This document shows positions 431-4,363 of a DNA stretch of 64,000 nucleotides, one piece after another; within the stretch, counting starts at the first letter, position 1; every line of letters starts with the position of its first letter. Under the pieces are notes generated by a model. It searched no databases, was not told the origin of the DNA, and saw nothing but the letters and a program-made list of their open reading frames with translations. A program made the position numbers and the translations under genes. The DNA comes from Candidatus Latescibacterota bacterium (lineage in GTDB: Bacteria; Latescibacterota; UBA2968), in NCBI GenBank assembly GCA_965205975.1, contig OZ242195.1:2016001-2080000 (forward strand), read 5' to 3'.

Positions 431-530
431 AAGTAAGAAGTGAAAAGTGAGAAGAGAGAAATCCACTCAATACCTCCCCAAGGCGGATGCTTCTTCACCT
501 TCACACTTCTACCTTCACACTTCACACTTC
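431..530. repeat. Inverted pair of degenerate heptamer tandem arrays
   Basis: aagtaag/aagtgaa/aagtgag/aagagag at 431-458 facing ttcacct/tcacact/tctacct/tcacact/tcacact at ~494-530; the right arm overlaps the mini-RNAP stop codon. Confidence 0.7.
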
Positions 531-3500
531 CATCGGTAACCCTACAAATAACCGGCTATACTCATCCGTCAATGGATCGCGCTCGCCCTTTTGCGCCGCT
601 CGGGCAAATACCACACCAGGTGTATCCGACCTGCGCGCCCGCGCAAAAACGCCATACCCACCTGGCGCACTCTGCGTTTCCAGATCGCTTTGAATTGCTA
701 TCATCTCTGCCAGCGCATTGGCCAAACCCCAGCGTGCACCAATCGCCCGCGCAAAAAGCTCCTCTGGCGTCAGCCCCTCTCGAAAACCATGCTTCAGAGG
801 CGTAAACCTACCCTGATCATTCCGCGTCACGCCCTGGGGAGCCACATAAAGTCTAACCTGTTGCCAATTGGCACGCGCACCGCATTCCACCAGAAGCGCG
901 GGAATCCCGAGATCATCGTCGTCATATCCGCGAAATCGCGCCAACACAGCCGACACCTCATCGGGATAATCGCGCCAGACATCTGGATCATCCCCCTCTG
1001 GCGGATCGGGCCAATCGAGCGACGAACCGATAAACGCACTCATCGAAGCCCCTGTCTTGCGCGCGGCATCAAACCCTCTATCCCACAATCGCGCAGCCAG
1101 ATCCAATGCAGCCTTCGCGCCATCGCGCGCCATTGCATCTGCCATCCAGCCCATCACCTGATACTTATCTACAAATACCCCCTTTCGCTCAACCTCATCG
1201 CCGACAATCTCCAAAATCTCCTGCAACCCCTCGTCCGTCATACTCATATACGCCAGGCCAAACAGCGCGTCGTGCATCGGGTGTACCTTCTCCCGCGCAA
1301 TCAGTCCCGGATCCCGAGTCAGGTGCGCCACCGCCGACAGATGTTCTTCAGCTGACCGCTGGCCTTCTTCGGTCACCGGCACAAAAATCGCCACCTGATC
1401 GCCATCAAAATCCATATCCATCATCTTGCAAATCGCCACACACACGCGCACTGCATCCCCCGCCACACGCACCGGATGACACGCCACAAAAGCCATTGGC
1501 GAAAACGCGGGTCTGCGAAGCACCACAACCCACAATTTAGCCATAGCTGCATCCAGAGCTTCCTCTGCTTTTCTCGACCGCCTATCCACTTCTTTAGCCC
1601 CCACCTCTCTCGCTGCAAACGGCCCAAACAACGTCCACGCCATTTCTTCGGGCACACCGACCTGATCGTATCCCAATTCGGGTGCAGGCACAGCCACCGA
1701 ACGTCCGCTGAACAACGCACGCGCCTGAAATTGCAAACGCGACAACTCGCAAAATGCGCGAACTCGCCCAGACAGCGTATCAACCGCGCGATGCACCAGC
1801 ACATCTGGTGCGCCATTGGCAATCATCTCCTCCAATCGCTCATTGGCCTCTCGCAATGCTCCGGGCACATCTCTCCCACTCACATGTGTCAACGAATGCC
1901 CCGGTAGCCACGGATGCGGAACCGAACGCGCAAGCGCGACATCCCCACCGCCTTTCAACGAAAACTCTACGCCGCGTTCATCCAGTTCAACAGCCACCCC
2001 ACCCTTTGACAAATGCCCAATTAGCTCATCAAACTGAGGGGACGGCATAGCGGGAGCAACAGACCCCGCAACGACGCGGTCAGCCAGAGTATCGGCATCA
2101 TCTCGATCTACCGCGCACGTATTGAACAAATCGCCAATCACCCCAAAAGCACCCGCTTCTCGCAACGCCAAAAACTCTGTCTCGCCCAATCCCTGGCTTC
2201 GCTGATCTAATTTTACACTTACGGGAACGGCTTGGCGTAGATCCGCGGCGGTTTGACCCAACTCTCGATCTCGTTTCCCCGGCTTCACACCAGCCTGAAT
2301 TTTATCCGCCGCCAAATGCACCGTGCGTCCCCAATACACCCACCCTACAGTGGTGCGACGCGGTAGCGTTTCCCCATTCAGCGTCAGCGTCTCCAGGCCA
2401 TCTTCTGCCAGCCCTGAAGCCCTCAAACGACCGCGTATCTCATCATCTTTGGGCGCATTGAGCGCGGGAACAATAACCGGCTCTCCCTCGGCTTTTGCAA
2501 TGCGCCCTGCCACTGCTTCGCGCACCTGCCCAATATTCAACCGCGACGGCAAACCACACACACTCACAATAAGCTCCACAGGCGTGCGATCCGATAACCT
2601 CGGCATCTCTTCATCTCGTACGATGCGCGACACCACCCCCTTAAAACCGTGCCGATTGCTCAGTTTATCGCCCGGCGCAACGCGATTGGGCAACATCATC
2701 CGGTTCGCAGCCGACTCGCTGACCACAACTGCATCTTCGTGTGTATCACCATTCCACGCCATAAAGGCGGTCAGCAAATTGTACCCCGTCCAGAAATGCG
2801 GATCGCGCGGTTCACACCCCGTTTGCACCAGCGCGGGTTCCGACTCCAGTAACTTGCCGTCATATTGCGCGTGATACGCGTGCCACACGCCCTGCTCATC
2901 GCGCTGCATATCGGGACCCGGCGCGCCAATCCACTGCCGCATCATATTCACGCCCATCAAAACGCGATTGGTATCATTGTGTTCCAAAAACGGAACCACC
3001 GAAGCACCTATGCCCAGCCGCTTTTCAGGCGCATCGTCTTCAATCACCAGCTTGCCATCGCGAATAGTCGCCCCTTGAGCCACCTCTAAAATCCGCGCGA
3101 GATTCGGTCCCTCGGGCGTACAATAAGGACACACGCGCCCATCGTGCGAAGGATGATAGCAATTCTCTATCCCCTCATCGGCCTCACCGATAATTGGGAT
3201 CAACGTCACCCGCCGCAAATGAACGGACATATCCTGCAAATTGGTCGCCTGCAAATACTGCGATGTGGGTTCTTCTGTAAAAAATGCGTGAATCCAATTT
3301 CCCAACAGCAACCATGTTTCAACGGTATCTCCCAGCATATCGGGCATATTTTCCAACCGCTCGGCGATATAATCGCGCAGTTGCTCACCCACACATCGAA
3401 TTTCAGCACGCGCCAAATCCACATCAGTCGGCGCAGGAACCACCGTTCGAAAAAAGCCATCTACCTTAAACCGCCCCCATTCGTCGGGCTGAGGAATATT

Positions 3501-3680
3501 TTTGTACACAACCTCTTGCCCTCCCTGAATCGCGAGATGCAATTCACAGGTGTATTCATCCACCGACACCACCCGGTACCCCGCCAGCGACACCCGGTCT
3601 GCCAACAATTCGGGCAATCCCTTTTGCACAAACATATCCCACGAAATTTTATGCCACGGCGCCTTCACTGAAAGACTCAT
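522..3680 (-). CDS. Miniaturised single-chain RNA polymerase beta-beta' fusion (RpoB/RpoC-derived, ~1052 aa)
   Basis: Collinear RpoB motifs ([107 protein letters not shown]) then RpoC motifs ([65 protein letters not shown]) in one frame; ATG at 3680 follows a GAGAGGAG RBS (ORF track start 3710). Confidence 0.93.
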
Positions 3681-3721
3681 CAAATTTCTCCTCTCTCTGT
3701 TAAAAGACACTTTTCAACTGT

Positions 3722-4315
3722 TTACCCTCTCCCATACCTCCGACCCCATGCCTCTGCGAGTTGCTTGCGCGCGTGGAACAGCCGCGATTTCACTGTCCCC
3801 TCTGGAATCGCCAGCCGTTCGGCAACTTCTCGAAGTGCCACCTCATCTTCGTACACCATCTGAAACACCTCGCGTTTTTCCTCCGGCAACGCATCGATCA
3901 ACGCCTGCAAAATGCGCCGTTGTTCAGCGCGTTCCAACTGCACATCGGGTCCCAACGCAGCCCGATCGATCATCCATCCCGGAACAGGTTGCTCTTCATC
4001 CTCCTCATCGTAAAGCGAAGGCATTTCCAGAGGCTGTTCGCGACGGCGACTTTGGCTTCGCAATTGATTCAGCGACAGATTTCTCGCAATCCGAAACAGC
4101 CACCCCCGAAAAGACCCTTGCTCAGACCATTGATCTGCCCGATTCCAAACCCTGAGAAAAACCTCCTGTGTCAAATCATCTGCAACACCCGGATCCCGCA
4201 TTATCCAACGCAGGCTCTCGGTCACCTGTGCCTGATAGCGCGCAAACAGAATCGCAAAAGCCTCTTGATCCCGCGCCACAATCCGCTGCATCAAAATCGC
4301 GTCCGATAATGTCAA
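3722..4315 (-). CDS. ECF (group 4 sigma-70) RNA polymerase sigma factor
   Basis: Region 2 ADDLTQEVFLRVW...FRGWLFRIARNLSLNQLR; region 4 LPEEKREVF...LREVAERLAIPEGTVKSRLFHARKQL; TTG at 4315 follows AGGAGG (ORF track start 4342). Confidence 0.95.
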   Translation of the reverse strand: MTLSDAILMQRIVARDQEAFAILFARYQAQVTESLRWIMRDPGVADDLTQEVFLRVWNRADQWSEQGSFRGWLFRIARNLSLNQLRSQSRRREQPLEMPSLYDEEDEEQPVPGWMIDRAALGPDVQLERAEQRRILQALIDALPEEKREVFQMVYEDEVALREVAERLAIPEGTVKSRLFHARKQLAEAWGRRYGRG

Positions 4316-4335
4316 AAAATATCCTCCTGTAAGAA

Positions 4336-4363
4336 TCGACACCGCCCAATGCTCAAAGGTTCA
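4336..4363 (-). promoter_or_regulatory. Candidate ECF-type (autoregulated) promoter
   Basis: TGAACC-N17-GTCGA on the - strand immediately upstream of the sigma RBS; resembles the generic GAAC...GTC pattern of ECF promoters. Confidence 0.45.

Follow-up and report, generated by a model that had tools for sequence, protein, structure and literature searches.

We analyzed a stretch of 64,000 nucleotides from a Candidatus Latescibacterota genome (contig OZ242195.1, positions 2,016,001 to 2,080,000; hereafter the window), which carries on its minus strand a two-gene cassette comprising a gene for an extracytoplasmic function (ECF) sigma factor and, immediately downstream of it, a gene for a single-chain β-β′ RNA polymerase (RNAP) of 1052 amino acids. 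The mini polymerase is a paralog that exists beside the ordinary rpoB-rpoC pair of the same genome, and its relatives in five named bacterial phyla are linked to an orthologous sigma gene and to a conserved ECF-type promoter. The interpretation that we prefer, and to which we give about an even chance, is that the cassette encodes a sigma-directed minimal RNA polymerase.

The sigma-polymerase cassette and its family

The features that delimit the cassette are the following (window coordinates; the basis of each assignment is given in parentheses).

395..427, minus strand: terminator-like hairpin of 14 pairs followed by a T-run, 3′ of the polymerase gene (hairpin scan)
522..3680, minus strand: gene for the single-chain minimal β-β′ polymerase (Pfam, NCBIfam, 31-sequence alignment, AlphaFold2 model, structure alignments)
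3681..3721, minus strand: 41-nt spacer from the sigma stop to the polymerase start, with the ribosome-binding stretch GAGAGGAG (sequence)
3722..4315, minus strand: ECF (group 4) sigma factor gene, 197 aa, with a TTG start 7 nt after AGGAGG (Pfam, NCBIfam, sequence)
4338..4363, minus strand: ECF-type promoter TGAACC-N14-GGTGTC after a T-run, with a -35-like element at 4363..4358 and a -10-like element at 4343..4338 (conservation)
4460..4487, minus strand: terminator-like hairpin of 12 pairs followed by a T-run, which closes the upstream unit and insulates the cassette (hairpin scan)

In the open reading frame (ORF) list of the window, the longest frame of the polymerase gene occupies 522..3710 on the minus strand and encodes 1062 aa from a GTG start. 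Because Met-11 of this frame is the start in 25 out of 25 database homologs and in three of the five locus translations within a 31-sequence alignment (the two remaining ones, L030 and L034, are longest-ORF translations carrying N-terminal extensions), we assigned the gene to 522..3680 and the protein to 1052 aa. The β domains precede the β′ domain in the chain, with Pfam matches to RNA_pol_Rpb2_6 (E 3.1e-37) and RNA_pol_Rpb1_2 (E 1.7e-13) and a borderline match to RNA_pol_Rpb2_3 (E 3.3e-4, 21.2 bits for a cut-off of 21), and the top NCBIfam models are bacterial rpoB, rpoC, and rpoBC at E-values of 1e-47 to 1e-49, far under their cut-offs. The protein carries the motif set of RpoB, namely the β double-psi barrel with GDK...RHGxKG, ED (residues 315-316), NMxRQ, and PSRxN (PSRLN, residues 378-382), and HLAADK at residues 455-460, as well as that of RpoC, which includes the NADFDGD barrel, switch 2 (SGRSV), the clamp helices, and the bridge helix, the latter with the motif GARWGL at residues 981-986 within a predicted 32-residue helix. 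In the β barrel, G337, D338, R343, G345, K347, and G348 are invariant across 67 family sequences. A first-pass annotation of the window had described one uninterrupted ORF of ~1052 aa, in which RpoB blocks reach to about nt 1985 and RpoC blocks follow; the Pfam order confirms this arrangement, and we place the β-to-β′ junction near residue 575 (nt ~1956). The DxDGD triad was recovered at exactly the annotated nucleotides, 1398-1412, and the ED, GDK, RHGxKG, PSR, and HLAADK residues and the bridge helix were all found as described.

The host genome consists of one contig of 5.56 Mb and is 98% complete. It has separate rpoB and rpoC genes, both of full length (1817 and 1750 bits, respectively), which are adjacent to each other at 1716052-1723827, ~296 kb from the cassette. 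The mini polymerase corresponds to 40% of their combined open-frame length (1052/(1269+1368)), in agreement with the earlier proposal that it is not the housekeeping enzyme but a copy cut to ~40%.

The sigma gene had been annotated as ending 41 bp upstream of the polymerase gene on the same strand, and it is indeed located there. Its product possesses sigma regions 2 and 4 only (Sigma70_r2, E 7.5e-18; Sigma70_r4_2, E 8e-15) and matches TIGR02937 with 116.7 bits for a cut-off of 42.9 (E 7.7e-34), as expected for an ECF sigma factor. The linker between the two domains contains an acidic run as well as the motif VPGWMIDxAxLGP, the latter being conserved across phyla in an 18-sequence alignment; a conserved motif in the sigma2-sigma4 linker is unusual for ECF sigmas. 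The host genome contains 20 ECF-family matches over the cut-off, and we therefore take the sigma factor of the cassette to be specific to it. The pair is flanked by terminators, as was noted previously: the hairpins at 4487..4460 and 427..395 are the two strongest in the region, where 12 terminator-like sites were counted vs. 7.1 +/- 2.8 in shuffles.

A search of 5.8 billion proteins revealed a family of similarly sized homologs: 114 of the best 120 matches span 93% or more of the query, with 43-92% identity and lengths of 969-1067 aa. Source names are attached to nine of these best 120 matches, eight of them reading 'hypothetical protein' and one simply enumerating Pfam domains. When 1.84 billion representative proteins were searched without filters, 346 matches were obtained at E <= 1e-30. 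From contigs representing one genome per species we retrieved 32 loci, including 20 from Latescibacterota, six from Armatimonadota, three from Planctomycetota, one each from Spirochaetales and Caldilineaceae, and one unclassified. The DxDGD motif is complete in 64 of 67 aligned family members. The first-pass annotation had raised a lack of intact homologs, neutral evolution, and misassembly as possible objections, none of which applies: intact homologs are plentiful across phyla; the ratio of nonsynonymous to synonymous substitution rates (dN/dS) is 0.11-0.20 for the polymerase against 10 orthologs (an eleventh comparison being saturated) and 0.08-0.19 for the sigma factor; and the gene is found in many complete genomes and in contigs from other runs, which excludes misassembly. 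These ratios show purifying selection on both genes, and a polymerase ORF with such motifs lies far beyond chance and represents a large, selected family.

Within the phylum, the distribution of the polymerase is patchy. It is present in 39 of 121 sampled Latescibacterota genomes, 12 of 44 genera, and 19 of 52 high-quality genomes; all 19 genomes of the window's genus possess it, and in two other families it occurs in 1 of 13 and 10 of 41 genomes. One Latescibacterota genome holds two copies of the polymerase and two of the sigma factor.

The linkage of the two genes, which the first-pass annotation had left as a point to be checked, is strict. An ortholog of the sigma factor (44-97% identity) is encoded upstream of the polymerase on the same strand in each of the 31 loci with flanking sequence, spanning Latescibacterota, Armatimonadota, Planctomycetota, Spirochaetota, and Chloroflexota (the 32nd locus, a 1151-bp fragment, is outside this count). 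In 18 loci the two genes are immediate neighbors, and in two further loci gaps of 0.8-1.7 kb separate them; no other neighbor is conserved outside close relatives in the 31 loci. Likewise, sigma orthologs (E <= 1e-48) were identified in all 39 polymerase carriers among the 121 Latescibacterota genomes, at adjacent coordinates, and in one further genome, where the end of the contig is 400 nt away from the sigma ortholog. No other ECF sigma in this sample scored better than 1e-31, although at least a dozen ECF-like candidates were obtained from each tabulated genome. Moreover, the maximum-likelihood trees of the polymerase and the sigma factor, constructed for 18 rows (the window and 17 of the 32 fetched loci; a quick version only in the case of sigma), agree in every supported group, and these groups follow the phyla.

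The promoter is shared as well. Of 30 regions ahead of the sigma gene, taken from the five named phyla, 27 contain the pattern TGAAC-N15-GGTGTC at a distance of 20-60 nt from the sigma start, the exceptions being L026, where the spacer is N14, and L024 and L039, which the pattern missed. Since many of these regions belong to close kin, they represent ~10 independent lineages. By its sequence conservation, this is a putative promoter of ordinary ECF geometry, of the GAAC-spacer-GTC type, located ahead of the sigma factor's own gene. The interval marked by the first-pass annotation (522..4363) stops at this site, which in the window occupies 4363..4338. A hint of expression comes from metatranscriptomic contigs of three studies (coral and sponge metagenomes), which contain relatives of both genes with 90-95% identity; one 847-nt RNA-library contig spans 2937..3811 and thus crosses the gene junction, and contigs of this kind give no start, strand, or level of transcription.

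Retained and missing elements of the polymerase chain

The AlphaFold2 model of the polymerase, which was built on a 67-sequence alignment, has a predicted local distance difference test score (pLDDT) of 90.7 and a predicted template modeling score (pTM) of 0.89, and only residues 470-491 are disordered. The modules and motifs of the chain are listed in order of residue number.

Residues 1 to ~575, nt 1956..3680, minus strand: β-like module (family profile against E. coli β; VIA-align)
Residues 337-348, nt 2637..2672, minus strand: β-barrel motif with two lysines, GDK...RHGxKG (motif search)
Residues 470-491, nt 2208..2273, minus strand: lineage-specific disordered insertion, absent in most relatives (pLDDT <50; gap in homologs)
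Residues ~576-1052, nt 522..1955, minus strand: β′-like module (family profile against E. coli β′; module fold)
Residues 607-643, nt 1752..1862, minus strand: predicted helical hairpin, equivalent of the β′ clamp helices (AlphaFold2 helices 607-621 and 626-643; aligned from E. coli β′ 267)
Residues 757-761, nt 1398..1412, minus strand: DFDGD metal-binding triad (motif search)
Residues 966-1003, nt 672..785, minus strand: F-loop-like FREGL motif and predicted bridge helix (aligned to E. coli β′ 716-792; predicted helix 972-1003)

In the RNA-library contig of a relative, 34 different letters stand in place of 2189..2296, a segment that includes the disordered insertion. The top PDB matches of the model in Foldseek are bacterial and plastid β chains (E 3.3e-24), with β′ chains appearing from rank 34 (E 1e-19), and matches to viral models are weaker (E 1.8e-16), the best of them being subunits of multisubunit viral RNAPs.

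Through the family profile, the β-like module aligns to E. coli β 119-147 (weakly), 494-580, 652-824 (~80 aa shorter in the mini polymerase), 1054-1143, and 1177-1342, the last of which reaches the C-terminus. In VIA-align, the model from residue 1 to ~569 superimposes on the second-largest RNAP subunits of all three domains of life (Z ~30, root-mean-square deviation (rmsd) 2.6-3.0 Å, ~500 residues), and the best bacterial chain, 8i23_C, has 32% identity, with model residues 1..544 placed on chain residues 20..1137. The β′-like module aligns to E. coli β′ 76-131 (weakly, with HPWL for HIWF), 267-514, 586-640, and 716-792, and the stretch that matches β′ 267-514 is ~25 aa shorter at the position of the rudder. 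When folded alone, this module has a pLDDT of 80.8 and matches bacterial β′ with Z ~27 over 375-407 residues, corresponding to E. coli ~100 to ~790, with a high rmsd of 13-16 Å that presumably reflects the orientation of the domains. The profile of the bridge-helix region, when searched alone against E. coli β′, gave E 5e-5.

With the names of the elements and their E. coli residue ranges as we take them to be, the profiles and the model indicate that the chain retains the fork, both double-psi barrels, switch 2, the clamp helices, the F-loop, and the bridge helix, and that it lacks the lobe, flap, zinc finger, lid, rudder, rim helices, jaw, C-terminal clamp, and a detectable trigger loop. The family profile did not align to E. 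coli β 148-493 (lobe) or β 825-1053 (flap), and ED and GDK are ~20 residues apart in the mini polymerase, whereas β 825-1053 lies between them in E. coli. Neither the profile nor the structural alignment extended to β′ 1-75 (zinc finger), to 132-266 (lid region), or past ~797, where divergent remnants are possible. The most conserved regions in the family are the β barrel (0.78), the fork (0.71), and the C-terminal tail (0.705), for an overall value of 0.635.

Beyond the bridge helix, the chain continues for no more than 49 residues. An assignment of this C-terminal tail to the first trigger helix, made by eye, was dropped: the profile of the tail misses the trigger loop, giving a weak, non-significant match (-3.9 bits) to β′ 1331-1352, and the structural alignment ends in the bridge helix.

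Possible roles and genomic surroundings

We propose that the sigma and polymerase genes would be co-transcribed from their private promoter TGAAC-N15-GGTGTC, which the sigma factor itself would recognize, so that the operon would be autoregulated, and that the host core with the same sigma would make the first transcripts. The mini polymerase would be an active DNA-templated RNA polymerase, for which α and ω would be dispensable, given the covalent link between its two barrels. Sigma region 2 would dock on the retained clamp helices, and the sigma factor would thus act as the promoter-specificity subunit; hairpin 607-643 is taken here as the equivalent of the clamp helices, which serve as the dock of sigma region 2 in canonical RNAP. 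Catalytic activity is suggested by the DxDGD motif, complete in nearly all members, by the invariant or near-invariant GDK/R/G/K/G and ED residues, and by the β barrel as the most conserved region. A role of sigma in directing the enzyme is suggested by the retention of the clamp helices while most of the clamp was discarded, and by the one-to-one co-occurrence, the congruent trees, and the conserved linker motif. As to the trigger loop, the phage polymerase YonO is reported to be an efficient, processive RNAP without detectable trigger-loop homology (PMC5467207), and it provides a precedent for activity of the mini polymerase without a detectable trigger loop. We also suggest, tentatively and at somewhat less than an even chance, that this is the smallest known sigma-dependent machine, comprising a protein of ~116 kDa (reckoned at 110 Da per residue) and a 197-aa sigma, without α, ω, flap, lid, or trigger loop, and that its private promoter would constitute a naturally orthogonal channel, insulated from the host RNAP and its inhibitors, in at least five bacterial phyla.

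Several observations weigh against a sigma-directed polymerase. The lid, rudder, zinc finger, and detectable trigger loop are absent, and one catalytic Asp is missing in three of 67 family members, namely P0052 (DFAGD) and P0067 and P0089 (both NFDGD). Conservation falls below the family mean of 0.635 in both the clamp helices (0.54) and the bridge helix (0.50); in canonical RNAP, the bridge helix is among the most conserved elements. The RNA-library contigs may stem from contaminating DNA. In canonical RNAP the β flap is the dock of sigma region 4 (PMC7824862); with the flap deleted, another docking site for sigma-4 would be required to maintain the canonical -35/-10 spacing.

The search for a regulon adds to these points. 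The sole perfect TGAAC-N14-CGGTGTC site in the 5.56-Mb genome is that of the operon itself, and sites with one mismatch are at chance level (15 at N14 vs. 29 at N13 and 11 at N15). A second genomic site with TGAAC-N15-GGTGTC (385266-385291, plus strand, locus L054) is intergenic, ~100 nt upstream of a gene for an AAA_14/DUF4143 ATPase, and is compatible with chance, two to three such sites being expected. Five other carrier genomes contain 27 sites with the promoter pattern, including those of their own operons, vs. 5 for a reversed-pattern control; additional sites were few and no convincing additional targets were identified in these five genomes, and the sole shared site (two genomes) lies inside an ORF of ~710 aa. 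Since the searches of the host and the five other genomes gave no regulon, the operon itself is the only target that can be named.

A sigma factor that acts with the host core alone would also fit, an explanation that we consider possible and place well short of an even chance. In this case, sigma would merely switch the operon on, and the mini polymerase would be its sigma-independent output, engaged in the extension of RNA primers, the copying of RNA or single-stranded DNA, primer making, or the formation of R-loops, tasks that might come more easily than promoter-dependent transcription to an enzyme with no lid, rudder, flap, or RNA-exit channel. Many ECF operons are the main target of their own sigma, the ordinary ECF geometry of the promoter suits the host holoenzyme, and the genome offers no further convincing copies of that promoter. 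Moreover, the dock of sigma-4 is deleted with the flap, and the lid and rudder, to which PMC5467207 ascribes the separation of RNA from DNA, are absent. On the other hand, the clamp helices, a known dock of sigma, have been kept though most of the clamp is gone, and the strict one-to-one co-occurrence, the congruent trees, and the linker motif together describe a bond tighter than that of a mere regulator-target pair, yet compatible with one.

It is improbable, in our view, that the protein is a non-catalytic RNAP mimic, which would either sequester the sigma factor as an anti-sigma-like sink in a negative feedback or bind nucleic acid without polymerizing. Retained clamp helices, a weakly conserved bridge helix, and the loss of a metal-binding Asp in three of 67 members are all consistent with such a mimic, as is the lack of a recognizable anti-sigma gene in the cassette, where the polymerase lies downstream of sigma and the 316-aa protein encoded upstream has no family (a distant anti-sigma is possible). 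However, a sigma sink would not require ~1000 residues with both barrels, and DxDGD is kept in 64 of 67 members while the lysine and arginine motifs of the β barrel are invariant and lie in the most conserved region. Finally, a polymerase of a phage, prophage, or other mobile or defense element (YonO-like), to which the patchy spread (39/121 genomes, 12/44 genera) and the two copies in one genome could point, is very improbable, given that the neighbors examined include no phage, integrase, transposase, or other mobile genes, as the first-pass annotation had also reported, that the flanks differ between phyla, that PADLOC has no match for the polymerase and PHROGs offers generic RNAP and sigma families only, that the viral structure matches are weaker than the bacterial ones (E 1.8e-16 vs. 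3.3e-24), that the supported tree groups track phyla, and that the similarity to bacterial β/β′ is high (E 1e-48), unlike that of YonO as reported in PMC5467207.

Should the cassette indeed encode a sigma-directed minimal polymerase, it would represent a natural experiment on which parts of cellular RNAP are dispensable for sigma-dependent transcription, with the flap, lid, rudder, zinc finger, trigger loop, α, and ω all absent. Many little-studied bacteria, among them sponge- and coral-associated Latescibacterota and members of the four other named phyla, would then run two cellular-type transcription machines, and a compact, genetically encoded, orthogonal polymerase-sigma-promoter triple would be at hand as a tool. 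If the sigma factor does not bind the polymerase, the tight linkage of a sigma to a pruned polymerase would still need explaining.

The position directly upstream of the cassette is taken by two overlapping genes (4519..6496, minus strand), with the terminator 4487..4460 at their end. They encode a 346-aa protein, in which only a DksA/TraR C4 zinc finger (residues 43-77) can be recognized, and a 316-aa protein without a family. The former is conserved in 15 and the latter in 14 close Latescibacterota loci only; because of this restriction to close relatives and the terminator in between, we do not consider these genes part of the cassette. The presence of a long DksA-type protein beside a polymerase without the usual DksA docking site is curious. 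Between sigma and polymerase, a gene intervenes in 11 of the 31 loci: an ABC half-transporter (ABC_membrane and ABC_tran, an ORF of ~597 aa) in nine of them (L012-L017, L019, L020, and L022) and an ORF of 381-396 aa without a Pfam family in L008 and L011. A DNA methylase and an MjaI-type restriction endonuclease are encoded a few genes upstream of the cassette in L008 (1231-2971) and are not found at that place in the window.

Short tandem repeats that vary between strains immediately precede the T-run and the -35-like element: the window contains three copies of a 10-nt unit at ~4385..4415 on the minus strand, and the same spot is occupied in L009, L010, L013, and L021 by repeats with other units and copy numbers. 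RNA-library contigs of relatives part from the window sequence just upstream of ~4368-4375. In PADLOC, the sigma factor gave two weak, sub-significant matches to CARF models (E 0.0012 and 0.0047). Two metagenomic proteins, P0262 (1948 aa) and P0264 (2309 aa), have RNA_pol_L and RNA_pol_A_bac domains ahead of the β and β′ domains in a single chain and appear to be α-β-β′ triple fusions.

Comparison with known systems

The cassette resembles the canonical RNAP core and ECF holoenzyme in its bacterial-type sequence, in both barrels, the fork, switch 2, clamp helices, F-loop, and bridge helix, and in a two-domain ECF sigma with a promoter of the GAAC...GTC type. It differs in that a single chain of 1052 aa takes the place of two chains totaling ~2640 aa, and the mini polymerase misses the cut-offs of the RpoB models (164.4 bits vs. 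801.15 for TIGR02013 and 159 vs. 896 for PRK00405) and of the RpoC model TIGR02386 (99.6 bits vs. 963.5). The natural RpoB-RpoC fusions of Helicobacter and Wolbachia share with it the order of β and then β′ in one polypeptide; however, they are full-length housekeeping enzymes, described by profiles of 2839-2890 positions whose cut-offs the mini polymerase also misses (NF011417, 165.5 vs. 4632; NF007172, 158.5 vs. 5372), and, unlike them, the mini polymerase coexists with separate rpoB and rpoC genes.

We found no description of the mini polymerase-sigma family in the literature, where a mention in a survey is possible, the supplement of the ECF reclassification (PMC7826278) and the alignments of PMC10770324 being outside the search. 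The latter work, which covers 23 RNAP families, mentions 'derivatives with fused DPBB domains' (DPBB, double-psi β barrel) among cellular-type RNAPs, and these might include the present family. The earlier view of a paralog cut to ~40%, with its active center kept and a private sigma, that belongs to no described family stands, and it is extended here by the identity of the parts cut, the conservation of the promoter in five named phyla, and the congruent trees.

Single-chain RNAPs with two barrels are listed for phages and fungal plasmids only in the table of a 2020 review (PMC7281927). The phage proteins YonO, crAss gp66, and P23-45 gp64 and gp96 resemble the mini polymerase, by their published descriptions, in consisting of one two-barrel chain of ~100 kDa in which no homology to the trigger loop can be detected. 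By the same descriptions they are phage-borne, have few residues in common with cellular RNAP, and have no known sigma, whereas the mini polymerase is chromosomal, clearly β/β′-like, and sigma-linked.

The nearest architectural analogue, judged from the papers' descriptions only, is K2ORF6p of the yeast killer plasmid pGKL2, a pruned β-to-β′ type fusion of ~1000 aa. These papers present it as a 982-aa Rpb2::Rpb1 fusion without lid, rudder, or detectable trigger loop (PMC2919709, PMC6211774); by its authors' account of 2018, such a fusion was 'not known to be present in any other' RNAP (PMC6211774, PMC2919709). As described there, K2ORF6p is eukaryote- or virus-derived, is encoded by a linear cytoplasmic plasmid, and works with the partner K2ORF7p and no sigma, whereas the cassette reported here resides on a bacterial chromosome.

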